Positions 4,252-62,900 of a DNA stretch of 64,000 nucleotides are shown here, piece after piece. The notes below the pieces were generated by a model that did no database searches, was not told the origin of the DNA, and saw only the letters and a program-made list of their open reading frames with translations. The position numbers were made by a program, and so were the translations under genes. The first letter of the stretch is position 1. Every line of letters begins with the position of its first letter. Source of the stretch: Dehalococcoidia bacterium (GTDB lineage Bacteria > Chloroflexota > Dehalococcoidia > Bin125); contig OZ253471.1 of NCBI GenBank assembly GCA_965261715.1, positions 624,763 to 688,762 on the forward strand, written 5' to 3'.

Positions 4252-4347
4252 CGTCCCCGTCCCCGCCACCGAGCGGGGACCTGTTCCCTCTCGCGGTGGA
4301 TGCAGGCGTGGGCCGAGCGGGTCCCCGCTCGGTGGCGGGGACGGGAG
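4252..4347. repeat. 96-bp element with perfect 25-bp terminal inverted repeats (cccgtccccgccaccgagcggggac ... gtccccgctcggtggcggggacggg)
   Basis: The arms are exact reverse complements. Each arm also contains its own 7-bp sub-palindrome (tccccgc/gcgggga). It lies in the divergent intergenic region between 4193 and 4408. Confidence 0.7.
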
Positions 4348-4407
4348 CACTACAGGTCGATGGCAAGTCGCTGATAGTCTGAGATCATTCAGCAAATCAG
4401 GAGTGGG

Positions 4408-4752
4408 TTGATGCCCGAAGACAACATTGAAATAAGCGTGCGCATGGCTGACCGCGGCGAGGTCGGCTACCGGATGGTGTCGGCGTCAATCAGCAGCCGC
4501 GAAGGATCGCTGGGCGGCGCGTCGGTCGCCTTCACGATCGTTGATGGTCCCGGAACCCTGGCCTCGGCCGGCGGTCGTGAGCGCACGGTCGACTCTGACG
4601 AGTGGGGAATCGCCGAGGTCAACTGGTACCCCGACCAGCACCCACGCTCATCGCCCGAGGCCGATATTGTGCAGACGGTTACGATCCGCGCCGTCTGCGA
4701 GACGGCGGCTGGTGTCTCAATCAACGTCGCCTCTCCGCTCTGGAAGCACTAA
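4408..4752 (+). CDS. Hypothetical protein
   Basis: 114-aa ORF preceded by aggagtgggttg RBS-like sequence. No recognisable motif. Confidence 0.35.
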   Translation: MMPEDNIEISVRMADRGEVGYRMVSASISSREGSLGGASVAFTIVDGPGTLASAGGRERTVDSDEWGIAEVNWYPDQHPRSSPEADIVQTVTIRAVCETAAGVSINVASPLWKH

Positions 4753-4862
4753 GCATCCGCTGAACAATTCCGATCCCCGCTTCCCCCCTCGCGGGGGAAG
4801 CTGCCGAAGGCTGAAGGGGGTCCCGTTTGGCCGGCGGAGCCGGTTGTTCAGAGGTTCACTCA
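4750..4862. repeat. MITE-like element family B (degenerate copy)
   Basis: Core ...ctgaacaattccgatccccgcttcccccctcgcgggggaagctgccgaaggctgaagggggtccc...gttgttcagagg.... It matches the copies at 19397-19512, 32997-33112 and 47162-47278. Confidence 0.7.
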
Positions 4863-4932
4863 GTTGGCGGATGGCGGGCGGCCCCCTCCGCGCCTACGGC
4901 GCACCTCCCCCAGAGGGGGAGGTCGGAGCACT

Positions 4933-5640
4933 ATGCAACGCGATCAGAAGCCGGCCGAGCCGGAGCTTCCCGAGTGGCTGCAGAAGATCGAGCGCTTCCC
5001 CCAGGTTGATCCGGTTGTCCTGCTGGGCTTTGCGCCGGTCGCGCTCTATCTGTTCTTCGACCGCGTCTGGGATGTCCGTCCGGCAATCGCAGCGGCGGTG
5101 ATCGCCGCGGTCGTCGTCTTCTTTGTTCAGCGCCGGCTGCGACCGCAACACAAGGTCGTGTTTCGTCTGGCCGTGTTGGGCCTCGCGGTCATCATCGCCT
5201 TTGGCATCGCCGGTCTGATCTGGGACGACGGCAAGATCTTCTGGGCTTCCGATCCGATCGAAGACTTCATCGTCGGGACGATCTTTGCGATCAGCCTGTT
5301 CATGCGTCGGCCGATCATCAGCCCGGTGATCCGTGAACTGATGCCGGAAGTCGCGGACAAGTTGCCCGGCGACCACAAGATCTGGATGAAGGTGACCGCC
5401 GTCTGGACCGTCAAGATCCTGCTGGCCGGTGTGCTACGGCTCTGGCTGCTGGACAGCGTCGACGCCAATACCTACGCCATCCTCAGATGGCCGCTCGGTT
5501 GGGCGATGAACGCAGCGCTGTTTGCCTGGAGCGCCTACGTGGTGGGCGGCGCCATTCGCGAATACGCCGTTTCGCAGCTTCGCGCCGAATCAGGCGAGGC
5601 CGGCGAAGTGGTCGCGGAGTCCGAGATCAGTGAACGCTGA
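4933..5640 (+). CDS. Integral membrane protein (several TM helices), function unknown
   Basis: From ATG at 4933 (MQRDQKPAEPELPEWL...). Hydrophobic segments VVLLGFAPVALYLFF, IAAAVIAAVVVFFV, LAVLGLAVIIAFGIAGLIW. The upstream part of the track ORF overlaps the repeat element. Confidence 0.55.
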   Translation: MQRDQKPAEPELPEWLQKIERFPQVDPVVLLGFAPVALYLFFDRVWDVRPAIAAAVIAAVVVFFVQRRLRPQHKVVFRLAVLGLAVIIAFGIAGLIWDDGKIFWASDPIEDFIVGTIFAISLFMRRPIISPVIRELMPEVADKLPGDHKIWMKVTAVWTVKILLAGVLRLWLLDSVDANTYAILRWPLGWAMNAALFAWSAYVVGGAIREYAVSQLRAESGEAGEVVAESEISER

Positions 5641-6675
5641 GCGGAACCACTCGATCACCTCGGGGTGATAGGGGATGCCGCGCTCGGAACGATCGATCTC
5701 CGCCTCATGCTCCTCGAGTCCCGCGTAAATCACGCGCTCCTCACCCGGCGCCGTCGGCGTCTCCCGTAGCGATTTCAGGTACTGGTCCATGTTGGACTTG
5801 AACTCGTCGACATCGGTGAAGGCGGCGATGTTGAAGACCGTGAAGTGGTGTCCGACGCCCTTGAATCGATGCAGCGCCGATCCGGCGCCGGCCATGATCC
5901 CGCTGAGGATGTCGATCGACATGGCCAGCGAGTAGCCCTTGTGCGAACCGATCTCCCGCGTGCCGCCGAGCGGCAGCATCAGGAACTCGTCGGGCGTTGG
6001 GCCCGATTCCATGATCGGTGTGCCGTCGGCGCTGGCGACCCAGCCGGGCAGCAGGTCCTCTCCGAGGCGCTGCGCCAGGCGAATCTTGTTGCCGGCAACC
6101 GATGACATCGAGGCGTCGAAGATGAACGGAGCCTCTTCATTGGCAGGCGCCGCGACGCTGAGCGGGTTGAGTCCAACCATCGCTTGCGCGCCATGCGTCG
6201 GCGCGACGAGCAGACCGCCGACCGTCATCGAGAGGCCGATCATGTCGTGCTCGATCGCCATCTGCGCGTGATAGGCAGCCGCGCCGAAATGCCGGCCATT
6301 GTTGCAGACGACAGTGGCGACGCCGCAGTTGCGCGCCTTCTCGATTGCGATCTCCATGGCTTGCGGTCCGAGCGTGAGTCCGAGGCCGCGGTCGCAGTCG
6401 ATCGTCGCCGCGGCCGGGGCGTCGCGCTCCAGCTTCCAGTCGGGCGTGGGATTGATATCGCCCGATTTGAAGCCGGCGACGTAGGCGCGCAGCATGTTGG
6501 AGACGCCGTGCGAGTCGATCCCGCGCAGGTCGGCGTAGAGCAGCGTGTCGGTGCTGCGCGTGGCGTCGTCCTCGGGCATGCCCATCCGGGTGAAGATCTC
6601 GTGTACGGCGCCGTGCATTGCGTCACCGGGGATGCGAACGGCGATCTCTTCGGGGACGGCGAACTGCTTCAGCAT
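5590..6675 (-). CDS. Ldh-family oxidoreductase (malate/L-lactate/sulfolactate dehydrogenase type 2 family)
   Basis: 361 aa with the Ldh_2-type layout: ...GIDSHGVSNMLRAYV...GRHFGAAAYHAQMA...HKGYSLAMSIDILSG.... Its 3' end overlaps the convergent membrane-protein gene by 51 nt. Confidence 0.75.
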   Translation of the reverse strand: MLKQFAVPEEIAVRIPGDAMHGAVHEIFTRMGMPEDDATRSTDTLLYADLRGIDSHGVSNMLRAYVAGFKSGDINPTPDWKLERDAPAAATIDCDRGLGLTLGPQAMEIAIEKARNCGVATVVCNNGRHFGAAAYHAQMAIEHDMIGLSMTVGGLLVAPTHGAQAMVGLNPLSVAAPANEEAPFIFDASMSSVAGNKIRLAQRLGEDLLPGWVASADGTPIMESGPTPDEFLMLPLGGTREIGSHKGYSLAMSIDILSGIMAGAGSALHRFKGVGHHFTVFNIAAFTDVDEFKSNMDQYLKSLRETPTAPGEERVIYAGLEEHEAEIDRSERGIPYHPEVIEWFRSAFTDLGLRDHFAGLA

Positions 6676-6928
6676 GAGGGGCTCCAGGGCTGCTTCCCGC
6701 GGGTCAAGCAGGGCGCTCGCGGGTCGAATCTGATGGTCTGTCGAGCAGGGTACCGCCAGTCTGATTCGTGGTTGTCAGCTGAACTGTGGCAAGTATGCGC
6801 TTTATCGTCCGTTGACATTTCCTTGATGTCGCGGACCGCTGATCTGCATAACGTCGGGAATGGAGACAACGGAAGGGCGGCGCAGGGCAGCTCGCCGGAC
6901 TCCAAGCAGATCAGAGGAGTGTGACGTC

Positions 6929-7183
6929 ATGAATGCGATGCCTGACTCGAATCCCTACGCGCTGGTTCAGCCGCAGCTCAAGGAGACGTACATGCGCGAA
7001 ATCGCCCGGCGTCGATGGATGAGCCAGCAGGAGCAGGAGCGCAAGCAGGCGCGCCGCCAGCGCGTCGCCAAGGTCGCCGACCGCGTCAAGCAGGTTCAGC
7101 GACTGCGACCCGGCCATGCAGTGGCCCACTCGCTGTCGCCGGTCTACAGCATGTTCAGCGAATCCTTCTTCCGCGGTCTCTAA
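6929..7183 (+). CDS. Small basic hypothetical protein
   Basis: ATG at 6929 is preceded by aggagtg. It is followed by a clear rho-independent terminator (gggcgaccctcgtggtcgccctttcgg at 7213-7240). Confidence 0.4.
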   Translation: MNAMPDSNPYALVQPQLKETYMREIARRRWMSQQEQERKQARRQRVAKVADRVKQVQRLRPGHAVAHSLSPVYSMFSESFFRGL

Positions 7184-7263
7184 GGCGGCTCACGGACCAG
7201 GAAGCAACTGTAAGGGCGACCCTCGTGGTCGCCCTTTCGGTTGCCTGCCGGACGCAACCTCCG

Positions 7264-7725
7264 CTACTCCCCTCGTGCACAGGCAAACAAGCCGTGCGGC
7301 TCATGGCCGCCGACCGCAAACAGATTGCCGTTGGGAGACCAATCAGCACGGTGCCTCGGTACAGATTCATATGAGTCGTGGTTTCGGCAGCTGGCCGCTG
7401 CAATGAGCTCACGGTCCACTTCGCCACCACGTCCGACTATCAACACCCGGAAATTGTACAGACCGTTGACCAGGAGTTCAGGGAGTACGCTCTCTCCCCT
7501 CAGTGTGATTTGAATTGAGTCACCCGTTGGATTCCAAGCTGCAGCTCGCTGCCAATGGGTCCACGGCTTGCTGCCAAAGTCAAGTTCCACTCCTCTCGCA
7601 GTCGACAGATCGAGCAGCATCGCACCGTGAATGAAGTCGATCGCGTAGACGTCCCAAACGGCCAATACGAGAGCTTGCTCTTCCTTGGACCAGTAGACAA
7701 CCAGCCTGGGTCTTTCACGGTCCAT
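7264..7725 (-). CDS. Hypothetical protein; possibly the C-terminal part of the upstream lipoprotein gene (same frame, separated by one TAG)
   Basis: Same reading frame as 7777..9483(-). A single TAG at complement(7777-7779) is the only stop between them. Confidence 0.35.
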   Translation of the reverse strand: MDRERPRLVVYWSKEEQALVLAVWDVYAIDFIHGAMLLDLSTARGVELDFGSKPWTHWQRAAAWNPTGDSIQITLRGESVLPELLVNGLYNFRVLIVGRGGEVDRELIAAASCRNHDSYESVPRHRADWSPNGNLFAVGGHEPHGLFACARGE

Positions 7726-7776
7726 GCTCGGATCGAACGGCGGCCATATCTGCGTTCCGGTTGATCGCTGACTGGA

Positions 7777-9483
7777 CTACACAACAACAGCGCGAAGGTC
7801 GTGTTGTCGGGCACTGTATAGCCAAGCTCGCCCTGTCGATTCCTCAACCACCATGGCGTGTCGCCGCAACGGTGACCACGCGATATAGATTGGCTCTTCA
7901 AGCGTGTCGCCTCCCTCTACTGACCGTATACGAGCAACGTCTTCATCCTTGCTCCCTCCAGATTCAAATGGCTCAAATCGAAGGAATTCGCCAGTGAATG
8001 TGAACACCAATGTGTGCAAATCTAGATCGCCCTTGATATCCACGCACAAGGCAGCAGTCGCAATCGTGTCGTCGCCGTGAAACTCCCACGTGCTGAAGTA
8101 GCCGTCAGCAAATGGTGGATCCACACGGCACGCTCGTCCTCGAAACTCACGACTCCAGAATGGGTCGAGTCGGATCATGTGACCTTCATCGTGGAACAGG
8201 AGCGTCGTAGGGGAACGTGGTTCCTGGCCTCTGTCGAACAAGGCGATTCGGAGCATGACTGCTTTGCTGTTTTTCGACCACTTTAGGTTCGCGTTCCACC
8301 CGCTGGATGTCATACCGAGGGATGACGCCACCTCCAATGTTCTGAAATCCTCAACAAAGGCGATGCGCTGCGTTCCGTCAAGCGGAATGATCAGCACACT
8401 ATTGTCTCGACCGCAATCAAGATCACGAGCGCACAGATCAGCGATCGCCAGATACCGACCATCCGGCGACAACTTCGCAAAGCCGGGCGGACGCGCGATG
8501 AATTCCAACTCATCCGTCTCCGGACGCCACTGCCAGATGTGGGTGTCGTTGTGAGCCAGCAGCCAACCCCAGGGCAGCCACATCCACTCGTTCGCTCTCG
8601 GTAGAATCTTCCCCTGCCCGACGCGAAAGTCATCTCCGGGGAAGATGACCGTCTCATCGCCAATCAGAATGGGCAGGTCTTGCAGCGTGACGTCGCCAGC
8701 CGGCAGGTTCACCTCGTCGATCGGCGCGCCGGTGATTGTTGACGTGTCGTCCTCAATTTTCAGCAGCCGGACTTCCGCGCCGTCTGCCGACTGCCCCATC
8801 ACCCCGTACTCCACGCCTCGCCACTCGGCGATCAGCGGAGGCGCTGGCTTTTCTAGCACCTGCCGTTGCTCGACCCTCCCGAGATCCAGCATCGTCGTGC
8901 GGATCCAGCCCTCTAAATCTCCGCCGAATCTGATCCGGTACCAACCGTCGGCGTGTTGTAGGACCGCCACTGACGCCCCGGACTCCAGCCGATCCATAAC
9001 CGGCCAGGCCAACCCCGGCCGCATCCGTACATCGGCGTCCTGCACAACAGCAGCGGGCACATCGGTCCGATCCAGGGGATGTTGCCTGGGTTCCGGCCTA
9101 GCCTCCTCAGCCTGATCGTCAGTCCGTGCGGGCGCTGCCTCGGGTGATGGCTGTTCTGAGACTTGCGCCGTCTCCTCCGCAGTCGACGCCTCCGCTGGCA
9201 GCGCATCCTCAGGCTCATCCGCGGCCGCTGGCTCTGCTTCTGACTCTGCTGCGCGGTCGACATCCCCAGGCCGCCTCGATGCCTGGGCGGCTGATTGCCC
9301 TGGAGCTTCCTGCTGCGCAACCGGTTTCGACGCCCGCTGCGTCTGCGTCTGAGGCTCGGACACCGAAACCGGCTCGTCGCCTCCACACGCGGCCACCACC
9401 ACGGCCAGAAACAACGCACAGTACAGACATAGGACTCGCATACAGATAGAAACGTACTGCGCTCCGGCAATGTTCCCAACCAC
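7777..9483 (-). CDS. Lipoprotein with acidic Pro/Ala/Glu-rich linker, bacterial SH3-like domain and beta-rich C-terminal region
   Basis: Signal peptide plus lipobox: LCLYCALFLAVVVAACGG. SH3_3-like segment: MRPGLAWPVMDRLESGASVAVLQHADGWYRIRFGGDLEGWIRT. Confidence 0.6.
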   Translation of the reverse strand: MVGNIAGAQYVSICMRVLCLYCALFLAVVVAACGGDEPVSVSEPQTQTQRASKPVAQQEAPGQSAAQASRRPGDVDRAAESEAEPAAADEPEDALPAEASTAEETAQVSEQPSPEAAPARTDDQAEEARPEPRQHPLDRTDVPAAVVQDADVRMRPGLAWPVMDRLESGASVAVLQHADGWYRIRFGGDLEGWIRTTMLDLGRVEQRQVLEKPAPPLIAEWRGVEYGVMGQSADGAEVRLLKIEDDTSTITGAPIDEVNLPAGDVTLQDLPILIGDETVIFPGDDFRVGQGKILPRANEWMWLPWGWLLAHNDTHIWQWRPETDELEFIARPPGFAKLSPDGRYLAIADLCARDLDCGRDNSVLIIPLDGTQRIAFVEDFRTLEVASSLGMTSSGWNANLKWSKNSKAVMLRIALFDRGQEPRSPTTLLFHDEGHMIRLDPFWSREFRGRACRVDPPFADGYFSTWEFHGDDTIATAALCVDIKGDLDLHTLVFTFTGEFLRFEPFESGGSKDEDVARIRSVEGGDTLEEPIYIAWSPLRRHAMVVEESTGRAWLYSARQHDLRAVVV

Positions 9484-9751
9484 GCAAACTCGCTAATATA
9501 AGAACACACGTGCCAAATAGCCAGGAAGACCCACCCATGCCCACCCCCATCTAATACAGAGCCTTCATCAACCGCCTCGCCCACCTCGCCGACGCCCGCA
9601 ACCTATCGCACATCTGTGTCGCCGCCACCGGCCTCATGCCCCGCCAACTCTCCCCGGCCAACTAATGGCGGCTTTCGCGACCAACCGGTCCGGGAGCCGC
9701 CGTCTTTGACTCCTGGGAACATCGCGACTCTGATGCCCGGATCCTGCGGTA

Positions 9752-12574: not shown

Positions 12575-12705
12575 CCGATGTGTTAACCTGATGGAAGATT
12601 GAAGCCGGGGTGGTCCGACCGTTAACACACGGGGTTCGGGCCTGAGAACACACCCGCTGAACCTGATCCGGGTAATGCCGGCGCAGGGAGCAAGCGCAGC
12701 AGCCA
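12575..12705 (+). ncRNA. TPP (thiamine pyrophosphate) riboswitch
   Basis: Contains the conserved THI-element cores ...ggggtggtcc...cctgagaa...acccgctgaacctgatccgggtaatgccggcgcagggag..., immediately upstream of thiD. Confidence 0.85.
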
Positions 12706-12753
12706 TCAGGCCCACCCGCAAGACAGTCGACCGCCCACACGCGGGAGCATTCC

Positions 12754-44567: not shown

Positions 44568-44644
44568 TGGCGCGCCCGGCAGGACTCGAACCTGCGACCT
44601 CTGCCTCCGCAGGGCAGCGCTCTAATCCGCTGAGCTACGGGCGC
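44568..44644 (-). tRNA. tRNA-Arg (anticodon GCG as read)
   Basis: Reverse complement gcgcccgtagctcagcggattagagcgctgccctgcggaggcagaggtcgcaggttcgagtcctgccgggcgcgcca; anticodon loop cuGCGga. Confidence 0.7.
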
Positions 44645-44685
44645 AATGCAACGGCGGGTTGGAAGTGGCTGGAGACTTCGAGTGC

Positions 44686-44772
44686 TGGTGCCGACGAAGG
44701 GATTCGAACCCCCACGGGCTTAAGCCCACTACGCCCTGAACGTAGCGCGTCTACCAATTTCGCCACGTCGGC
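44686..44772 (-). tRNA. tRNA-Leu (CAG)
   Basis: Reverse complement gccgacgtggcgaaattggtagacgcgctacgttcagggcgtagtgggcttaagcccgtgggggttcgaatcccttcgtcggcacca. Long variable arm, anticodon CAG. Confidence 0.8.
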
Positions 44773-44862
44773 AGCGATCCGGAGTCTGCTTCGACTCCCT
44801 CCAGTCTCCTTGTTGTTGCCAACCCTTTCAAGCGTATCCCGAAATCTGATAACGGCGAATGC

Positions 44863-44939
44863 TGGTGGGCGATGCAGGACTTGAACCTGCGGCCTCTCGG
44901 ATGTGAACCGAACGCTCTAGCCAGCTGAGCTAATCGCCC
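44863..44939 (-). tRNA. tRNA-Val (CAC)
   Basis: Reverse complement gggcgattagctcagctggctagagcgttcggttcacatccgagaggccgcaggttcaagtcctgcatcgcccacca. Confidence 0.8.
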
Positions 44940-44991
44940 GTATCTGAAGGACGCACCCCAAGGTGCTGGTAGCAGACGCACCCCAAGGTGC

Positions 44992-45067
44992 TGGTAGCAG
45001 CGGCAGGACTCGAACCTGCGACACGGGGCTTATGAGTCCCCTGCTCTGCCTACTGAGCTACGCTGCC
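44992..45067 (-). tRNA. tRNA-Met (CAT), elongator type
   Basis: Reverse complement ggcagcgtagctcagtaggcagagcaggggactcataagccccgtgtcgcaggttcgagtcctgccgctgctacca. The 3' terminal 23-25 nt are tandemly duplicated immediately downstream (44950-45000). Confidence 0.75.
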
Positions 45068-55808: not shown

Positions 55809-56031
55809 GCGCAAATGAAGAACGCACCGCTCGGCAAGAAGCCTGATGAGCGTTTCGCAGATGCCAGCCTTAACAATTGGAGAGCGGAAGTCCAGTGTGC
55901 TTGGGGAGCCCCCCCAAGTCCGGACACAAAAATCGTTGCGATTCCTTTGGGAGTGGCAGCGGTCGCGATGTCCGAACAATCTCTACTTTTGCAGCCGGCA
56001 TGACCGGCTGAACCAATGGAGAGTTTGATCC

Positions 56032-57512
<1,481 letters not shown>

Positions 57513-57762: not shown

Positions 57763-57839
57763 GGGCCATTAGCTCAGCAGGTTAGAGCGCAGTCCTGATA
57801 AGACTGAGGTCCCTGGTTCGAGTCCAGGATGGCCCACCA
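57763..57839 (+). tRNA. tRNA-Ile (GAT)
   Basis: gggccattagctcagcaggttagagcgcagtcctgataagactgaggtccctggttcgagtccaggatggcccacca. Confidence 0.9.
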
Positions 57840-57954
57840 ACCAGAAGACTCCCGTCCAATGAACAGGCGGGAGTTTTTCGCGTCCAGCGGCCTGCAGGGT
57901 CACATTTCGAGTCCGGCGATGCAAAGCCTCGCCAGGCGCTAAAGTAACGATCCC

Positions 57955-58030
57955 GGGGCCGTAGCTCAGCCGGGAGAGCGCCGCCCTTGCACGGCGGAGG
58001 TCAGGGGTTCGATTCCCCTCGGCTCCACCA
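57955..58030 (+). tRNA. tRNA-Ala (TGC), intact copy
   Basis: ggggccgtagctcagccgggagagcgccgcccttgcacggcggaggtcaggggttcgattcccctcggctccacca. G3:U70 and encoded CCA. Confidence 0.9.
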
Positions 58031-58069
58031 CTCCCAGATCCTTGGATTCCACGAGATGGAAGCGGCACG

Positions 58070-58474
58070 ATGAGTGACGACGCGCCCGCTGATCAGCCAG
58101 ACCAGCGCCCCGGCCGGATCGGCTGGCAGGACCTGACCGTCGACAATGCGGAGGTCGTGCGCGACTTCTACAGCGAGGTCGTTGGTTGGAAGACGATGCC
58201 GCTCGACATGGGCGGCTACGACGACTACGTGCTGCTCAGCCCCGACGGCCAGGCCGGCGACGGCCAGGCCGGAATCGCGGGAGGCTGCCACGCCCGAGGA
58301 GTCAACGCCAATCTCCCGCCACAATGGCTGATCTACGTCAACGTCGAAGACCTCGACGCCAGCTTGAAGTCCCTGGGAGGCAGCATCGTGGATGGGCCCA
58401 GGGAGATGGGTGAGGGTCGGTTTTGTGTCATCAGAGATCCGGCAGGCGCGGTCTGTGGATTGATTGAGCAGTAG
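58070..58474 (+). CDS. VOC-family (glyoxalase/bleomycin-resistance fold) protein
   Basis: …IGWQDLTVDNAEVVRDFYSEVVGWK…GRFCVIRDPAGAVCGLIEQ is a typical single-module VOC protein. Starts 40 nt after tRNA-Ala. Confidence 0.6.
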   Translation: MSDDAPADQPDQRPGRIGWQDLTVDNAEVVRDFYSEVVGWKTMPLDMGGYDDYVLLSPDGQAGDGQAGIAGGCHARGVNANLPPQWLIYVNVEDLDASLKSLGGSIVDGPREMGEGRFCVIRDPAGAVCGLIEQ

Positions 58475-58562
58475 CTCAGTCGGCTTAGGTTCTCCATGTT
58501 CACAGGCGCGGGACGATGGCGGCCTGCGGTCGGAGCGGGCTATATTGGTCTCGCGATACCGG

Positions 58563-58994
58563 TTCATGGAGATTGAAGTGGGTGAGATCATCGTCGAGAT
58601 TGAGCTGGAAAATGCCGAGGACCGATCGGACGCGCGCCGCGGACGGATCGACGAGGCGTCGGTGCGGCGGGAAAAGGTGCAGGCAGTCGCGGACACCGGC
58701 GCGGTGATGCTGGCGCTGCCCGAGGATGTAGTGGAGGGACTCGGACTGCCAACGGTCCGGACGCTGACGAGCACATTCGCCGACGGTCGACGCGGTCAAT
58801 TGCCGATCGCCGGGCCGCTAACGATCCAGATCGGAGACCGACAAATGCTGACGGAGTGCATCGTCGTGCCCGAGGGCGCCGAGGCGCTGGTCGGGCAGGT
58901 CGTGATGGAGACCCTGGACTTGATTCCCGACCCCATGAATCAGACGCTAGGCCCAAGGCCGAAGTCGCCAGATCGTTCGTTGCTGCGGGTGTAG
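58563..58994 (+). CDS. Retropepsin-like (clan AA) aspartic protease
   Basis: Catalytic motif ADTGAVMLALPEDVVEGLGL (D-T-G-A). The true start is likely ATG 58563 (MEIEVGEIIVE...) rather than the overlapping 58464. Confidence 0.55.
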   Translation, partial: FMEIEVGEIIVEIELENAEDRSDARRGRIDEASVRREKVQAVADTGAVMLALPEDVVEGLGLPTVRTLTSTFADGRRGQLPIAGPLTIQIGDRQMLTECIVVPEGAEALVGQVVMETLDLIPDPMNQTLGPRPKSPDRSLLRV

Positions 58995-59098
58995 GGATTA
59001 TCGGCTGCATCGTTTCGCGCAGGCTTTTGCAATAGGGTCCAGTGAGGTGGAGATTCGGACGCGCGTCGGATCGGATCGGGCGCTACGCTGGGGATGCA

Positions 59099-59174
59099 CG
59101 GGCCGTAGCTCAGCTGGGAGAGCGCCGCTCTTGCACGGCGGAGGTCAGGGGTTCGATTCCCCTCGACTCCACTA
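59099..59174 (+). pseudogene. Second, degenerate tRNA-Ala(TGC) copy (tRNA-like remnant / att-like duplicate)
   Basis: cgggccgtagctcagctgggagagcgccgctcttgcacggcggaggtcaggggttcgattcccctcgactccacta. Has C1 instead of G1, a C5-A68 mismatch, and ends CTA instead of CCA. Otherwise about 93% identical to the copy at 57955. Confidence 0.6.
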
Positions 59175-59207: not shown

Positions 59208-60971
59208 ATGCAAATCAAGGAACTCCACGTTCAACGTTTCCGGGGGTTCTCGGAAATCAAGATCCGACCTCGCGGGAACGTCGTTTTGATGGGAGAACCC
59301 GGCGCTGGACGCACTGACCTTTTCGAAGCGTTGAGCAGACTTCTGAACTTCTATCAAGGTCGCAATCGCGAGATCAGTGAGTTGGACTTCCACTTGGGAG
59401 ACTGCAGCGAACCAATCAGAATATCGGTCACGCTAGGTGATCTTGACATCGACCTCGAACAGGATTTCTTCGACCACTTGGAACTATGGGACGAAACTGA
59501 TCGTTGCTTGATCGATGAAGCCCAGAATGGTCAATTGGACGACCGAGCCGATTGTTCATGGGCATTCAGAATAACGTACGAGGCTCGCTGGCTGCAGGAC
59601 GAAGCAATGCCAGAGGACCGGGTGTTCTTTCCGAAAGACTCCGATCCTGAGTCCGGAATATTTGCCCGTGTCCGGCGCAATGACCTTGAGGCTCTTGGCT
59701 TTGGTCTGCTCCGCCCGGGGAGCACAGGGATGCTCGAATTGGGCCCACGTAGTGACTTTCGCAAACTGGTTGATGTCGCAAATGGTGACGATTTCGGGGC
59801 AGCTATGAGAAAATATGTCAACGAGGTCGGCATAGCGGCGGAGAACTTCAGTCACTCTGACCAGGTGCAAGCGGCAGTCGCAAGAATTGTTGCGCTAACG
59901 GGTGAGCTTCAAGGAATCCCGAACATTGATCCGAGCACTTTCATCCAATTTGCCCCTGATGACGGTTCTGAAAGCGGCTTACTGCGCTCTCTCGGAGCTG
60001 CAGTGGACTTTGACGATGGAGTCGGACAGCTACCAGCCTGGCGGCACGGATCATCTACCAGATCGCTTCTGAAGGTCGCTGAAGTGGTCGCTGCGGCCAA
60101 AAGCCCCAAACCAGTCTTGGTCATTGATGACCTCGGAGACGGAATGGATGCACCGTCTGCAGCGCATCTAGCTGCTGCGCTGTGCGAAACAGCCAGCCAA
60201 GTGTGGGTAACCACGCGGATACCCGCGGTTGCAGAAGTATTCCAACCTCAGGAAGTGCTGCGCCTCGGAAAAGGGAAGGCCGGGAAGAGAACGCTGCACA
60301 GCGGAACACACGCAATTAAGCCCGAGGAAGCTGCGATGTACAAGCACTGGCATCGAAACCTGTTGCCAGCTTTGACCTATCGAAGCGTCATAATAGTTGA
60401 AGGGCCTCACGACTTCGTCGCCTTGCACACACTTGCTCTCCGGCTGCATGAAGAACGTGGTACCGCCCTTCCTGCGACACACAAAATAGCAATTGTCAGC
60501 GCAGGCGCAAGTGGTGACGGCGGATACGCAACAGTGATGAAGTTGGCTCGGCAAGCCAAATCAATGGGTCTATTTGCGGTTGGCGCAGTTGACGGCGACT
60601 CCGATCCGGCTTCCCTGAAATACATCGAGACAAACTTAGAAATGGCTGACTCTGTAGTGCGGCTTCCTCGTCGGTTCGCAATCGAAAAGGCTCTCGTTCA
60701 CGACATTCCGGATAGCGTCCTCATGAGCGTTGTTCAGGATCTTGAGAACGCAGTAAACATGGAGAACACCAACGTGCAGCCTTCGGATGGCGGAGATATA
60801 CACAAGAAGGCAATGGCCCTTCTGAAGAAGGAATCACTGCACGGGCCCTTCATCGACCTACTCCCAGCAGAACACCTGCCCCCTCTCGCCTGCCGATACT
60901 TAGGGACCTTAGTTGGCGCCGCTAGAGGCGACTCAGCAGGATTGATTCAACTTTGCAAATCAACGACCTAA
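59208..60971 (+). CDS. gajA: OLD-family ATP-dependent endonuclease (ABC-type ATPase + C-terminal TOPRIM), Gabija GajA-like
   Basis: N-terminal MQIKELHVQRFRGFSEIKIRPRGNVVLMGEPGAGRTDLFEAL (P-loop, with Arg in the usual Lys position). Walker B-like VLVIDDLGDG. C-terminal TOPRIM: IIVEGPHDF (Glu) and AVDGDSD (DxD). GC about 50% vs the window's roughly 65% background. ATG 59193 is an alternative start. Confidence 0.75.
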   Translation: MQIKELHVQRFRGFSEIKIRPRGNVVLMGEPGAGRTDLFEALSRLLNFYQGRNREISELDFHLGDCSEPIRISVTLGDLDIDLEQDFFDHLELWDETDRCLIDEAQNGQLDDRADCSWAFRITYEARWLQDEAMPEDRVFFPKDSDPESGIFARVRRNDLEALGFGLLRPGSTGMLELGPRSDFRKLVDVANGDDFGAAMRKYVNEVGIAAENFSHSDQVQAAVARIVALTGELQGIPNIDPSTFIQFAPDDGSESGLLRSLGAAVDFDDGVGQLPAWRHGSSTRSLLKVAEVVAAAKSPKPVLVIDDLGDGMDAPSAAHLAAALCETASQVWVTTRIPAVAEVFQPQEVLRLGKGKAGKRTLHSGTHAIKPEEAAMYKHWHRNLLPALTYRSVIIVEGPHDFVALHTLALRLHEERGTALPATHKIAIVSAGASGDGGYATVMKLARQAKSMGLFAVGAVDGDSDPASLKYIETNLEMADSVVRLPRRFAIEKALVHDIPDSVLMSVVQDLENAVNMENTNVQPSDGGDIHKKAMALLKKESLHGPFIDLLPAEHLPPLACRYLGTLVGAARGDSAGLIQLCKSTT

Positions 60972-62593
60972 AGCCATCGCAACAAGAAGTCATCAACGCA
61001 CTGCTGGGCGATGCCTCGAGGGTGCTCGTTGCTGGCGGTCCTGGAACTGGAAAAACCACGACGGCGCTGTGGGCAGCTCGCTCCTTTTTAGAGGCCGACC
61101 ACGACAACATCCCCAATCGCGTTCTGTTCTTAACATTCTCACGATCGGCGGTCGATCAGATCCAGAAGCGCTGTCCGGCAGCACTCGCGGGGTATGAAGA
61201 TAGGGTCGAAGTATCGACATTCCACGCCATCGCGTACCGCCTTATCCGTACATTTGGCCGATATGGTGGCCTTGGCAGGGAACTGCCAGCGATCCAATCA
61301 AGGGCATCGGAAAAGCTGTTTCAGCGAGACCGAAGTGCATACAGTTACGACGATTTGCTCCCGACTGCAACAGCACTCTTGGAAGGCAGCGAATTGGTCC
61401 GGCGTATTGTGTCAAATCGCTGGGGGCTGTTAATATGTGATGAGGTGCAAGACACGTCCTCGGAGCAGTGGCAATTCTTGCAGCTGCTATCGTCGAATGA
61501 GCTTCTATTGTTGGGTGACCTCGGGCAGATGATATACGGTTGGCTTCCAGGTGTATCGGTAGATACGTTCCACGATATGAAAGAACAGGTTGATGTTACT
61601 TTACATCTCGCGGCATCTTCTTTTCGAGATCCCTCCGGTGCGATTCCAGGATTGGCCGATGCAGTCAGAACGCGGCAATTCGATCACGGGGCAGTGCACA
61701 ATGCTCTGGAAGAGCAGCGTTTGATCGTCGTGCCAGATACGGGTAACGATATGGTGCCGGGAAATCTGATCAAGTTGGTAGAGAGTGCAAGGGCACCGAG
61801 ACATGAAGATGTCGGTATCTTTGCCGCGGACAACGAGACGGTCGCCCAGATAGGGGTTCACCTGCACGATGCTGACATCGATCATGTTCTGGTAGGAATT
61901 CCTGAGGCTCACGGTGAGGCTTTGGCGGCAATGGTTGCACAAATCTCCTTTGCGGTGGGGTTGATTGGTCAAGAAACTCTTCGGCACGCAATGGCGTTGT
62001 TTGTCACGGCCTGCGCAAGAGGATCTAGTGTTCCAGTGTTGGCACATAAGCTTGTCGGGAGAATGCCCTTGACGCAGACAGAGGAGTTAGCACTGTGGAG
62101 GCAGGAAAGATCGCTCGCGGCTGCCGGGATGGGTACGGTTGGAGGAGTGGCTCAGGCCGCGAGCGAATGTTGGAGCGGATTGCCTATCGGGTCCGCGGTG
62201 CGACCTTGGCAGCGCGCGGTCCGGCATTTCATGCGCTTGATGGGGCGGGATCGGGCTCTGTCCGCGTCCGGCGACATTGTATCGGTCTTGAAGCAGGTCG
62301 TCGAGGTTGGAAGAGCCGAGTCTCTAGTGGATTTGAATTATTTTGAGCGCGGTCGCGTGATGCTGATGACCTTGCATCAGACCAAGGGTCGGGAAGTCGA
62401 TACGGTGATTCTCGTGTTTCGCTCGGAAGATTACTTCGGCCGAGAAGGAGAACCATTCGAAGATTCTTCGCGGCTTCTCAACGTGGCGATTTCGCGAGCT
62501 CGCAAACGCGTCATAGTCGTGGTCCCATCTGATCCTCATCCGCTCATAGCACCGTTCCAGACTCTAGCTCAGGGAGGTAGCTTCAAGTTGTGA
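60953..62593 (+). CDS. gajB: UvrD/PcrA-like SF1 helicase, Gabija GajB-like
   Basis: Motif I VLVAGGPGTGKTTTAL. Motif II LLICDEVQD. Motif III LLLLGDLGQMIY. Motif VI VMLMTLHQTKGREVDTVILVF. Overlaps gajA by 19 nt (operon). Confidence 0.75.
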   Translation: MQINDLKPSQQEVINALLGDASRVLVAGGPGTGKTTTALWAARSFLEADHDNIPNRVLFLTFSRSAVDQIQKRCPAALAGYEDRVEVSTFHAIAYRLIRTFGRYGGLGRELPAIQSRASEKLFQRDRSAYSYDDLLPTATALLEGSELVRRIVSNRWGLLICDEVQDTSSEQWQFLQLLSSNELLLLGDLGQMIYGWLPGVSVDTFHDMKEQVDVTLHLAASSFRDPSGAIPGLADAVRTRQFDHGAVHNALEEQRLIVVPDTGNDMVPGNLIKLVESARAPRHEDVGIFAADNETVAQIGVHLHDADIDHVLVGIPEAHGEALAAMVAQISFAVGLIGQETLRHAMALFVTACARGSSVPVLAHKLVGRMPLTQTEELALWRQERSLAAAGMGTVGGVAQAASECWSGLPIGSAVRPWQRAVRHFMRLMGRDRALSASGDIVSVLKQVVEVGRAESLVDLNYFERGRVMLMTLHQTKGREVDTVILVFRSEDYFGREGEPFEDSSRLLNVAISRARKRVIVVVPSDPHPLIAPFQTLAQGGSFKL

Positions 62594-62730
62594 AGGGAGT
62601 GACGAGTGCAGGCCTCCTCTTTGGAGACCGTTTGCGGGTAGAGGCCGCATGTTGAGAAGTGTTCCCATCTGCTTTGTTGTTGCCTGGTTTATCGATTGCG
62701 GCTGTCAGCGCCGTGCTAAGATTTCTGGGA

Positions 62731-62847
62731 GCTGGTGATTGGAGCGCGGTGGCCCCACCCGTTCCCATCCCGAACACGGAAGTGAAACGCCGCAGCGCTG
62801 ACGATACTGGGGGGGCAACCCCCTGCGGAAAATAGGCCATCGCCAGC
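62731..62847 (+). rRNA. rrf: 5S ribosomal RNA
   Basis: gctggtgattggagcgcggtggccccacccgttcccatcccgaacacggaagtgaaacgccgcagcgctgacgatactggggggcaaccccctgcggaaaataggccatcgccagc. Helix I closes between the two ends. Confidence 0.9.
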
Positions 62848-62865
62848 TCGCTCTTTTCCTGCTCC

Positions 62866-62900
62866 CGCCCGACCTCGTGTCGGGCGGTTTTCGTTTCACC
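62866..62900 (+). terminator. Rho-independent terminator after 5S rRNA
   Basis: cccgcccgacctcgtgtcgggcgg followed by ttttcgtttc. Confidence 0.7.

Follow-up and report, generated by a model that had tools for sequence, protein, structure and literature searches.

In the stretch of DNA analyzed here (64,000 nt from a Dehalococcoidia metagenome-assembled genome (MAG), hereafter the window), the second of two tRNA-Ala(TGC) copies is best explained as a decaying, redundant duplicate of the resident tRNA-Ala unit, which consists of a -10-like hexamer, a 9-nt leader, and the whole tRNA. This copy lies within a cargo interval that shows no sign of mobile elements and takes the place of 23S in the fragmented rRNA locus of a Dehalococcoidia clade. 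We give this reading a probability of about 65%.

The rRNA locus and its variable interval

The rRNA operon of the window runs 16S, tRNA-Ile, tRNA-Ala, and 5S, without 23S (Table 1). No LSU/23S match was returned across the whole window by Rfam, even at E ≤ 1. With 56 kb of 23S-free sequence ahead of the 16S gene and 6.5 kb behind it, 16S and 23S are more than 1500 bp apart, the distance that defines unlinked genes. Separation of 16S and 23S has been described as a class-level trait of Dehalococcoidia (Brewer et al., bioRxiv 10.1101/705046). Similarly, 23S is absent from this operon in L002, L006, L031, L035, and L045, and only two distant relatives, L061 and L062, have it in place between tRNA-Ala and 5S. 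Collectively, these comparisons show that 23S has been lost from this operon across the whole clade.

Table 1. Features of the rRNA locus and its interval, in window positions.
Feature	Position	Strand	Basis
16S rRNA gene, first part of the fragmented rRNA locus	56013..57511	+	Rfam RF00177, 1536.6 bits
tRNA-Ile(GAT)	57763..57839	+	ARAGORN; Rfam 70.5 bits
Hairpin then U5 directly 3' of tRNA-Ile, terminator- or processing-stem-like	57844..57878	+	Fold energy -22.8 kcal/mol
-10-like hexamer TAAAGT, 9 nt 5' of tRNA-Ala copy 1	57940..57945	+	Cross-genome motif conservation
tRNA-Ala(TGC) copy 1, intact, G3:U70, encoded CCA	57955..58030	+	ARAGORN; Rfam RF00005, 69.8 bits
VOC/glyoxalase-fold protein, single domain, 134 aa	58070..58474	+	PF00903, 22.4 bits (cutoff 20.6)
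PR, retropepsin-like clan AA aspartic protease, 138 aa, chimeric gene	58578..58994	+	PF13975, 30.2 bits (cutoff 28.2)
Spacer f, PR to copy 2, with -10-like TACGCT at 59084-59089, 9 nt 5' of tRNA	58995..59098	+	Homology
tRNA-Ala(TGC) copy 2, degenerate duplicate, probable pseudogene	59099..59174	+	ARAGORN (59099-59172); Rfam RF00005, 56.2 bits
GajA, OLD-family ATPase + TOPRIM nuclease	59208..60971	+	PADLOC GajA, E = 1.8e-33
GajB, UvrD-like SF1 helicase	60953..62593	+	PADLOC GajB, E = 6.6e-52; PF00580, E = 2.4e-28
Extended -10-like element TGCTAAGAT, 9 nt 5' of 5S	62713..62721	+	Motif at conserved distance
5S rRNA gene, conserved right-hand anchor of the variable interval	62731..62848	+	Rfam RF00001, 88.1 bits
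Intrinsic-terminator-like hairpin (9 bp, 8 G-C) + T-run, 3' of 5S	62865..62897	+	Terminator scan

Among 42 related genomes, the interval from tRNA-Ala to 5S ranges from 23 to 5649 nt, and homology ends no more than ~4 nt past the CCA and ~20–35 nt ahead of the 5S gene. The edges of the interval fall a few nt from the tRNA-Ala 3' end and from the 5S promoter-like element. The interval is "empty" (23–96 nt) in 22 of these genomes and differently filled in others, in keeping with an earlier interpretation, made from the sequence of the window alone, that genes are gained here. That sequence-only reading took the empty state to be tRNA-Ala followed directly by 23S; the 22 empty loci lead from tRNA-Ala to 5S instead. 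The cargo of the filled intervals includes Gabija, Cap15/CBASS-like, Septu-like, AAA_21+HNH, PD-Lambda-5, R-M, MTase, and AIPR genes, as well as PIN, SIR2, KAP, OLD-TOPRIM, DUF4062, TmtA-like, and MkoA-like genes, and comprises at least 12 different defense-type gene sets (a plain tally, not an enrichment statistic). Conserved cargo ORFs c8, c11, c13, c19, c36, and c54 matched no Pfam family, and the first five matched no PADLOC model either.

No integrase, recombinase, or transposase was detected in the four ORFs of the window interval or in the cargo ORFs scanned from ~25 related loci, where ORFs were called with a home-made codon model trained on the window, which a small or degenerate recombinase could escape. 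Because GajB and other foreign genes of low GC tend to be missed by this model, gaps were re-scanned. Collectively, the interval is a fast-changing, mostly anti-phage gene slot in place of the former 23S.

The two tRNA-Ala copies

ARAGORN and Rfam agree on two tRNA-Ala(TGC) copies with a degenerate distal one, as initially proposed, and both scores exceed the RF00005 gathering threshold of 29 bits. Copy 1 has the same sequence as the alleles of L002 and L045. Five differences separate copy 2 from it within the tRNA: G1>C, a D-loop C>T, C31>T (giving U31-G39), G68>A, and C75>T. BLAST aligns the copies at 94.8% identity over 77 nt (E = 5e-30), a similarity that chance does not explain; the figure of ~93% given previously holds if position 1 is counted. 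The loss of G1, the C5-A68 mismatch, and the CTA end of copy 2 were borne out by cmscan, which reports C1·C72 and C5·A68 as non-canonical pairs, and by alignment; its transcript would end in CUA, and CCA is encoded in 9/9 other tRNAs of the window. Both copies keep G3:U70 and A73, and the anticodon loop and T-arm of copy 2 are intact. Moreover, the homology between the copies reaches ~20–25 nt upstream (GGCGCTA...GAT) and 3 nt downstream of the tRNA; the duplication of the tRNA had been recognized before, and its upstream extension had been missed.

Based on comparison with the clade, the positions G1, G68, and C75 that changed in copy 2 are invariant in ~55 intact tRNA-Ala copies, all of which end in CCA. 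The pseudo-tRNA at the corresponding position of L002 scores only 30.8 bits, the counterpart in L042 has also decayed much further than copy 2, and tRNA-Ala remnants in more advanced decay occur in L023 and L007. MFE folding recovered no cloverleaf for either copy, intact copy 1 included, and therefore the copies were assessed by covariance scores and clade comparison. A metagenome scan with a copy 2-specific 27-mer returned 51 loci, every one an unrelated tRNA from another taxon. These features suggest that copy 2 is probably a pseudogene; with a score well above the Rfam threshold and G3:U70 kept, it may have residual function.

The VOC and PR genes

Profile searches established that both ORFs between the tRNA copies are real genes, a VOC protein and a retropepsin-like protease (PR), and their GC content is host-like (62–66%). 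The best PDB match of VOC is Mycobacterium tuberculosis Rv0577 (3oxh, E = 1e-19). VOC orthologues lie directly 3' of an intact tRNA-Ala in 17 genomes, with a median dN/dS of 0.155; VOC is thus a conserved tRNA-Ala neighbor under purifying selection. This position, the host-like GC, and the purifying selection contradict the proposal that VOC and PR are cargo carried in between the repeats.

Translation of PR probably begins at the GTG at 58578, which gives 138 aa as in homologues. The DTG motif occupies residues 39–41, with D39 and T40 invariant and G41 nearly so in a 37-sequence alignment; 285 homologues were found, and the dN/dS of PR is 0.25. The AlphaFold model (pLDDT 90.7) matches HIV-1 protease with a TM-score of 0.70 and a probability of 1.00. 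By its predicted retropepsin fold and DTG motif, PR falls within clan AA. A phmmer search of PR against PDB sequences gave nothing, and retropepsins were recovered only by the structure-based search. In addition, PR scores below the cutoff of NCBIfam TIGR03698 (clan_AA_DTGF; 46.3 vs 57.35 bits).

The PR gene is chimeric with respect to two paralogues in L002, PR and PR'. Nucleotides 1–270 are 94% identical to L002 PR and 65% to L002 PR', whereas nucleotides 271–417 are 87% and 88% identical, respectively, and third-codon-position identity to PR' rises from 41% to 82% past nt 270. The PR family is multi-copy and Chloroflexi-restricted, forms tandem arrays, and duplicates, recombines, and decays at the locus. 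PR also occurs without VOC in L028, in L031 (three tandem copies), in L043, and at dispersed sites with unrelated neighbors; at the dispersed sites L082–L093, no tRNA remnants follow the PR paralogues. The two genes are adjacent in only 4 of the 17 VOC loci, and tblastn detected no decayed PR genes in the 400–600-nt gaps after VOC. Neither protein matched a PADLOC model. VOC and PR, the cargo pairing singled out by the sequence-only reading, are not an obligate pair.

The Gabija genes

Gabija does lie directly distal to copy 2, as had been noted: gajA starts 36 nt past it, and gajA and gajB overlap by 19 nt on the same strand. The TOPRIM residues E398 and D462-G463-D464 of GajA are invariant within its subfamily, and its match to PF20469 (OLD-like TOPRIM) is weak (18.2 bits; cutoff 23.2). 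The Walker A motif of GajA usually contains Lys; here it reads GxxGxGR[S/T], with Arg replacing Lys. The Gabija genes have a GC content of 51–57% against 62–66% for the host, and they are absent from all 80 related loci. A search for the donor among 5.8 billion proteins found none, the nearest non-identical GajA having 52–53% identity. Gabija is a recent, lineage-specific, foreign low-GC acquisition.

Promoter- and terminator-like elements

Several short elements of the locus resemble promoters or terminators. The hairpin after tRNA-Ile, a putative terminator, is more stable than all of 200 shuffles (0/200; z = -4.09), and its GGGAGTTTTTCGCG recurs in L006 and L008. Upstream of tRNA-Ala, a TAnnnT hexamer (TAGGCT, TACGCT, TAAAGT, TAGAAT, TAAGAT) is found at the same distance where the tRNA-Ala of the subclade is apart from tRNA-Ile, and it is missing in genomes where tRNA-Ala directly follows tRNA-Ile. 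This pattern suggests that TAAAGT serves as the tRNA-Ala promoter, and intact copy 1 probably drives VOC and PR. The spacer f has a homologue in L002 and L042, where it separates PR' from the pseudo-tRNA, and copy 2 together with 21 nt of upstream sequence shares 90.5% identity with the genuine tRNA-Ala and leader of L022. Furthermore, most cargo-bearing loci have a gTGcTAcgaT-type motif at equal distance ahead of 5S, and L050–L056 have the related cCTACAATg, while 23S-bearing relatives have TTGCC-17-gATAcT in its place; we infer that 5S has an independent promoter. The assignments of the tRNA-Ala, 5S, and post-tRNA-Ile elements are based on cross-genome motif conservation, and none of the three was reported by a generic sigma-70/terminator scan.

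Age of the duplication and a possible mechanism

Copy 2 and its upstream flank also occur in L002 and L042, the two closest relatives, but there VOC follows them; the duplication must therefore have preceded both the present arrangement and Gabija. The tAla1-VOC-PR segment of the window is collinear with psi-tAla-VOC-PR of L002 at 89% identity (psi, pseudo-copy), and its PR-f-tAla2 segment is collinear with PR'-f-psi of L002 and L042. The spacer f is only ~75% identical between the window and L002, and the pseudo-copies of the two could be old tandem-array paralogues instead of strict orthologues. The order of events is not uniquely reconstructible, as an L002-like arrangement can be turned into a window-like one only in two or more steps.

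The repeated unit, in the window and in L043, comprises a 21–25-nt 5' leader with a -10-like hexamer and the entire tRNA. In L043, two identical intact tRNA-Ala copies, again repeated with the leader, flank PR, a Dam-like MTase, and PD-Lambda-5. The first tRNA-Ala of L042 bears a T-loop allele typical of another subclade, yet its 16S is 100% identical; this foreign allele and the chimeric PR hint at elevated recombination at the flanks of the interval. The repeat unit, with its promoter-like hexamer and whole tRNA, and the chimeric PR point to homologous recombination between repeated modules instead of site-specific integration. Duplications and rearrangements would arise by RecA-type recombination between tRNA-Ala units, the conserved 3' tract of PR paralogues, and 5S/rpsA, through a double crossover with relatives' DNA or a Campbell-type or unequal crossover. 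The presence of a second tRNA-Ala would leave the distal copy free to decay. Because copy 2 keeps its -10-like TACGCT and gajA begins 36 nt away, it might still provide a promoter and 5' leader for Gabija.

A bolder form of this mechanism, which we regard as speculative and unlikely, treats the tRNA-Ala unit as a reusable docking and expression module in an integrase-free, integron-like array of rRNA-operon parts. RecA-dependent, Campbell-type recombination at tRNA-Ala would bring in new cassettes, and the 5S gene or the conserved 3' tract of PR paralogues could serve as homology arms instead. An additional promoter-bearing tRNA copy would remain after each capture and would transcribe the downstream cassette, and RNase P/Z would cut the tRNA-mRNA co-transcript. 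The snapshots of such a process would be tAla-VOC-PR / psi-tAla-Gabija / 5S in the window, tAla-PR' / psi-tAla-VOC-PR-x / 5S in L002 and L042, and tAla-PR-MTase-PD-Lambda-5 / tAla / 5S in L043.

Alternative explanations

The sequence-only reading likened the locus to an integration footprint. In this view, a mobile element with VOC and PR, or with Gabija, entered tRNA-Ala through a site-specific recombinase, the tRNA was regenerated, and a degenerate, attR-like copy was left. tRNA genes are well-known integration targets (PMC5635113), and tRNA direct repeats do bracket 1.07 kb here, with foreign low-GC Gabija just distal. However, no integrase appears in the window interval or in the scanned ORFs of relatives, and the repeat spans the whole tRNA and its 5' leader, not the 3' part only. 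The bracketed genes have host GC, with VOC next to tRNA-Ala in 17 genomes, and the pseudo-copy is older than Gabija and placed elsewhere in L002 and L042. Moreover, an exact 35-mer of tRNA-Ala matched no viral contig in IMG/VR. With no recombinase found in the scanned ORFs, no att-like repeat, and no foreign DNA between the repeats, the classical footprint is largely refuted already, and we consider it very unlikely. An assembly artefact is more improbable still and borders on the negligible: the source is a MAG, and misassembly is a classic problem of rRNA operons and repeats, where a chimeric contig could join rRNA-operon fragments through tRNA-Ala repeats, but a separate 21-kb ENA metagenome contig (L001) is 100% identical over the region. 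The 23S-less 16S/tRNA/5S locus also adjoins rpsA in chromosome-level and short-read MAGs from many studies, and the module of PR, f, and pseudo-tRNA recurs in L002 and L042.

Two other possibilities concern function. Copy 2 might be a working second tRNA-Ala, either an isodecoder or a selected tRNA-like regulatory or processing element. It is called as tRNA-Ala by ARAGORN, outscores the tRNA-Leu of the window (56.2 vs 51.6 bits), and retains G3:U70, A73, the anticodon loop, the T-arm, and the upstream TACGCT. Against this, the acceptor mismatches and CCA loss affect positions invariant in the ~55 intact copies, and the far more decayed counterparts in L002 and L042 (30.8 bits in L002) and the remnants in L023 and L007 favor decay; we find a functional copy distinctly unlikely. 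The chance that VOC and PR form a dedicated two-gene system, such as a defense or toxin module to which the tRNA copies are incidental, is slight. PR follows VOC in the same orientation after ~100 nt, the pair is also present in L002 and L042 and more loosely in L016, both genes are under purifying selection, and the locus is rich in defense genes. In contrast, 13 of the 17 VOC loci have no adjacent PR, PR stands without VOC in L028, L031, L043, and the dispersed sites, PADLOC gives no match, and VOC resembles the housekeeping-type Rv0577. The evidence as a whole favors a decaying duplicate in an interval that took the place of 23S.

Implications and comparison with known systems

A duplicated tRNA beside foreign genes is easily taken for the scar of a prophage or island, and the relatives point otherwise here. 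The vacated 23S interval, between two extremely conserved RNA genes with apparent promoters of their own, seems to have become a recombinase-free defense hotspot. If homologous recombination on these ultra-conserved anchors is the route, defense cassettes could pass between fairly divergent lineages, which would help to understand how uncultured Chloroflexota of marine and sponge type defend themselves. In addition, the locus offers a compact search ground for new defense genes. In annotation, copy 2 should be marked as a pseudogene, and VOC and PR should not be treated as a system.

The Gabija genes agree with the known system in their adjacent GajA (ATPase and TOPRIM) and GajB (UvrD-like helicase), with strong PADLOC matches, and differ in that their subfamily is divergent, at most 52–53% identical to anything else. 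Characterized bacterial retropepsin-like proteases have a signal peptide or membrane anchor. Single-domain bacterial proteases of this kind include TIGR03698/TIGR02281, Rickettsia APRc (PMC4140852), and Pseudomonas aeruginosa enzymes (PMC11957051). PR resembles these proteases in its DTG motif, ~138 aa length, and predicted retropepsin half-barrel, but it lies under the NCBIfam cutoffs and belongs to a multi-copy, Chloroflexi-restricted family with tandem arrays.

As in other unlinked rRNA genes (Brewer et al., bioRxiv 10.1101/705046), 16S and 23S are apart here. In contrast, 5S stays with 16S, tRNA-Ile, and tRNA-Ala, 23S alone is gone, and 5S has a promoter-like element. This arrangement, with 5S retained and 23S departed, is absent from Brewer et al., where 5S rRNA is never mentioned, and from the titles and abstracts searched. 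Prophages and islands targeted to tRNA genes by an integrase (attL/attR) share with the locus foreign DNA beside a tRNA gene and a direct repeat of tRNA sequence; here, however, no integrase was found, the repeat is diverged and covers the full tRNA with its leader, and the bracketed genes are native.

The closest parallels are hotspots of horizontal gene transfer and "core defence hotspots", which have conserved flanks and no mobile elements (Oliveira et al. 2017, PMC5635113; Johnson et al. 2023, PMC10250203). The tRNA-Ala-to-5S interval likewise has fixed, conserved boundaries, contents that differ fully among close relatives and are mostly anti-phage, and no integrase among the scanned ORFs; homologous recombination may act at its flanks or close to them. 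It differs in that RNA genes of a broken rRNA operon, tRNA-Ala and 5S, flank it in place of protein-coding core genes, and in that the slot is a former 23S site that gathers promoter-bearing tRNA copies and PR paralogues.

Organization of the rRNA locus

No 23S rRNA gene was detected by Rfam anywhere in the 64-kb window, even at permissive thresholds. A separate 21-kb ENA metagenome contig is 100% identical to the window across the region. Ordinary features unrelated to the tRNA-Ala duplication include a TPP riboswitch (60 bits, 12596-12706) and a minus-strand cluster of four tRNAs (Arg, Leu, Val, Met; 44568-45067).

Features of the window's rRNA locus (ARAGORN and Rfam in agreement; every feature on the plus strand) and cargo of related loci (about 25 filled loci annotated with Pfam and PADLOC)
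Locus	Feature	Position	Strand	Bits
Window	16S rRNA	56013-57511	+	
Window	tRNA-Ile(GAT)	57763-57839	+	
Window	tRNA-Ala(TGC) copy 1	57955-58030	+	69.8
Window	VOC-fold ORF	58070-58474	+	
Window	Retropepsin-like ORF (PR)	58578-58994	+	
Window	tRNA-Ala(TGC) copy 2	59099-59174	+	56.2
Window	gajA (Gabija cargo)	59208-60971	+	
Window	gajB (Gabija cargo)	60953-62593	+	
Window	5S rRNA	62731-62848	+	88.1
L031	Cap15 receptor-domain effector beside 292-aa ORF (CBASS-like)	7823-9308		
L028	AAA_21 ATPase + HNH (Septu-like)	4619-6659		
L028	940-aa MTase-containing protein (c12)			
L032	940-aa c12 protein, as in L028 (by clustering)			
L043	PD-Lambda-5_A + Dam-like MTase	6683-8968		
L008, L009, L021	N6/N4 MTase modules			
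L022	AIPR + PIN toxin	4307-8031		
L024	SIR2	7514-8941		
L047	KAP NTPase	7875-9359		
L014	OLD-TOPRIM ATPase	5310-7577		
L016	DUF4062 protein			
L035, L038, L041	TmtA-like giant helicase (c6, ~1490 aa)			
L037	MkoA-like helicase-nuclease	5744-9253		
L003, L005, L023, L024	PaREP1-type small proteins			

Relatives were gathered with the downstream rpsA (S1) gene as anchor, giving 80 loci from species-representative genomes, and were compared by mapping window segments onto all 80 and running Rfam on a sample of them. All but one (79/80) are Dehalococcoidia or Chloroflexota MAGs, many at chromosome level; the exception is a 3.4-kb contig titled Acidobacteria. The distant relatives (L061-L080, S1 about 60% identical) have the canonical order 16S, tRNA-Ile, tRNA-Ala, 23S, 5S, rpsA, with 23S confirmed by Rfam in L061 and L062 (about 2,780 bits). 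An extra tRNA gene lies between 23S and 5S in these two (L061:7913-7984, L062:9341-9412). A large inner clade of at least 42 related genomes (within L002-L059) has no 23S at the rRNA locus, which reads 16S, tRNA-Ile, tRNA-Ala, (cargo), 5S. Among the 42 genomes holding both tRNA-Ala and 5S, the gap between them is only 23-96 nt in 22, 184 and 958 nt in two and more than 1 kb in 18. Six genomes have cargo between tRNA-Ile and tRNA-Ala instead, except that one of the six, L019, has it at both places. In some relatives (e.g., L003, L018, and L027) the operon is even more fragmented, as 16S too is absent from the 4-9 kb upstream. The sequence-only reading had expected the empty locus to be tRNA-Ala followed by 23S; the short gaps show that the empty state is tRNA-Ala followed directly by 5S. 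Across the relatives, the interval ranges from empty to 5,649 nt.

The tRNA-Ala-to-5S interval as a defence hotspot

Transport or metabolic genes also occur among the cargo at a few loci, and no integrase or transposase was found by Pfam and PADLOC among the cargo ORFs scanned from the ~25 filled loci. The conserved cargo ORFs c8, c11, c13, c19, c36, and c54 have no Pfam match, and the five of them scanned with PADLOC as well (c8, c11, c13, c19, and c36) lack a match there too. Homology between genomes ends within about 4 nt past the tRNA-Ala CCA and about 20-35 nt ahead of 5S. Collectively, the interval is a rich defence hotspot, and the scanned ORFs yielded no recombinase.

Gabija, whose gajA starts 36 nt downstream of copy 2, has a GC content of 51-57% versus 62-66% for VOC, PR, and the host, and was not found in any of the 80 related loci; its acquisition here is recent. 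The GajA Walker A motif (residues 29-36) is GEPGAGRT, with Arg at the position where Lys is expected. This Arg is nearly invariant in the GajA subfamily (12/13 aligned), and TOPRIM E398 and DGD462-464 are invariant; such proteins may be nucleotide-sensing rather than hydrolysing variants.

VOC and PR are resident genes

The glyoxalase-fold VOC and the clan AA protease PR had been taken for a cassette delivered between the tRNA copies. However, their GC content is host-like, and in 17 loci a VOC orthologue, always co-oriented, immediately follows tRNA-Ala; both genes are resident and were not delivered as cargo. VOC has a median dN/dS of 0.155, and its nearest solved structure is M. tuberculosis Rv0577. 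The window VOC carries a 15-nt tandem duplication at 58244-58273 (gacggccaggccggc / gacggccaggccgga), which encodes DGQAG twice, and lacks 3 residues present in all 16 orthologues; the reading frame stays intact.

At least 285 proteins, each about 138 aa long, make up the PR family; members with a named source come from Chloroflexi/Chloroflexota MAGs, and several genomes have more than one paralogue. The predicted PR model (pLDDT 90.7) superposes on HIV-1 protease (TM 0.70, probability 1.00). In a 37-sequence alignment the catalytic D and T show no variation and G almost none; dN/dS is 0.25. At the tRNA-Ala-to-5S locus the family turns over quickly, with a three-copy tandem array in L031 (6434-7751), a frameshifted copy in L042 (7308-7720), and C-terminal fragments in L024 (7381-7479) and L028 (4252-4401). 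PR adjoins VOC downstream in only 4 of the 17 VOC loci, it occurs without VOC in L028, L031, L043, and dispersed sites with unrelated neighbours, and neither protein matches any PADLOC model; therefore, we do not regard the pair as a system. One dispersed paralogue, beside an MTase-HNH gene, precedes a 649-aa AAA_15/AAA_21 ATPase by 111 nt (L082:3001-5478; also L083-L085). This echoes the PR-then-OLD-type-ATPase order of the window; that site has no tRNA remnant.

Decay and age of the second tRNA-Ala

Copy 2 proved degenerate, as the sequence-only reading described. In the alignment it differs from copy 1 at five positions within the tRNA. These leave C1·C72 and C5·A68 mispaired, create a U31-G39 wobble, alter the D-loop, and turn CCA into CUA; G3:U70 and A73 are retained. 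The clade's intact tRNA-Ala genes number about 55 and fall into 23 distinct 76-nt alleles; without exception they carry G1 and G68 and encode CCA, and the nine other tRNAs of the window all encode CCA as well. Copy 2 is altered at exactly the clade-invariant positions, a signature of relaxed constraint. Beyond what was described earlier, the two copies are also similar in the roughly 20-25 nt that precede the tRNA (GGCGCTA...GAT).

The closest relatives, L002 and L042, have 16S genes 100% identical to that of the window and carry a second, more decayed tRNA-Ala (psi-tAla; 30.8 bits in L002) at another place. Their order is copy 1, a second PR paralogue (PR'), spacer f, psi-tAla, VOC, PR, other cargo, 5S; that of the window is copy 1, VOC, PR, spacer f, copy 2, Gabija, 5S. 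The window's copy 1-VOC-PR is collinear with psi-tAla-VOC-PR of L002 (89% identity), and its PR-f-copy 2 with PR'-f-psi-tAla of both relatives. These blocks indicate that a pseudo-copy and its upstream flank predate both the divergence of the three genomes and the arrival of Gabija. Moreover, tRNA-Ala has been duplicated around cargo more than once. In L043, two 100% identical intact copies (6011-6086 and 9435-9510), which also share a similar leader of about 25 nt, flank PR, the Dam-like MTase, and PD-Lambda-5_A, an independent and apparently recent duplication of the same kind. One decayed copy is present in L023, and in L007 a marginal 3'-half match (E = 0.32) lies just upstream of VOC.

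Proposed homologous recombination and probable separate transcription units

The tRNA duplication had been interpreted as an integration footprint. That reading is only partly supported: genes are indeed gained at this site, Gabija recently, but the tRNA copy is older, VOC and PR are resident, and the scanned ORFs include no recombinase. In both the window and L043, what is repeated is a tRNA-Ala gene unit rather than an att core; it starts about 21-25 nt ahead of the tRNA and extends to its 3' end. Together with its leader, copy 2 shares 90.5% identity with the genuine tRNA-Ala and leader of L022. Nucleotides 1-270 of the window PR are 94% identical to L002 PR and 65% to PR' (third positions, 41%), whereas nucleotides 271-417 are 87% and 88% identical, respectively (third positions to PR', 82%). 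PR is thus a mosaic, the switch at nt 270/271 marking a recombination junction; the PR end, spacer f, and copy 2 all belong to the PR'-linked block. The intact tRNA-Ala of L042 has a T-loop allele typical of another subclade despite its 16S being identical to the window's, suggesting that alleles move at this left anchor. These observations fit homologous recombination between repeated modules, with 5S/rpsA, tRNA-Ala units, and the 3' tracts of PR in that role. An economical scenario would be a double crossover with a donor PR-f-tAla-Gabija-5S, pairing on the left through the PR 3' tract and on the right through 5S/rpsA; Campbell-type or unequal crossovers at tRNA-Ala are alternatives, and we make no choice among them.

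The leader within the repeat holds a TAnnnT hexamer (TAGGCT, TACGCT, TAAAGT, TAGAAT) exactly 9 nt before the mature tRNA-Ala 5' end. Its conservation is restricted to genomes in which tRNA-Ile and tRNA-Ala are separated, and it persists in copy 2 as TACGCT. Comparison of the 60 nt upstream of 5S in L002-L081 showed that most cargo-bearing loci share gTGcTAcgaT, a motif of the extended -10 type, 9 nt ahead of the gene (window 62713-62721); L050-L056 have a related cCTACAATg, and the 23S-bearing relatives have TTGCC-17-gATAcT. This conservation points to a dedicated 5S promoter in this group. With a strong predicted terminator after 5S and a very stable hairpin plus U5 after tRNA-Ile (z = -4.1), the locus appears to form four independent units: 16S and tRNA-Ile; copy 1, VOC, and PR; the pseudo-tRNA and gajAB; and 5S. 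Cargo, which is on the minus strand in some relatives, would then leave 5S expression uninterrupted, and such separation would explain how the arrangement is tolerated. The pseudo-tRNA may survive partly because its putative promoter serves Gabija. Collectively, copy 2 is best read as an older, decaying, promoter-bearing duplicate from homology-driven rearrangement.

Comparison with known systems

The more interesting result is the wider context, in which the tRNA-Ala-to-5S interval of an rRNA locus lacking 23S has turned into a defence hotspot. Unlinked 16S and 23S genes are an already reported trait of the class Dehalococcoidia (bioRxiv 10.1101/705046); we found no description of a 5S kept beside 16S and tRNAs in that preprint, where 5S rRNA is unmentioned, or in the titles and abstracts searched. 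It is an established idea that hotspots can turn over without mobile elements, their conserved flanks serving for double homologous recombination (PMC5635113). The present locus is a variant of these two known kinds, unlinked rRNA genes and hotspots free of mobile elements, and a close analogue is the "core defence hotspots" described in P. aeruginosa (PMC10250203).
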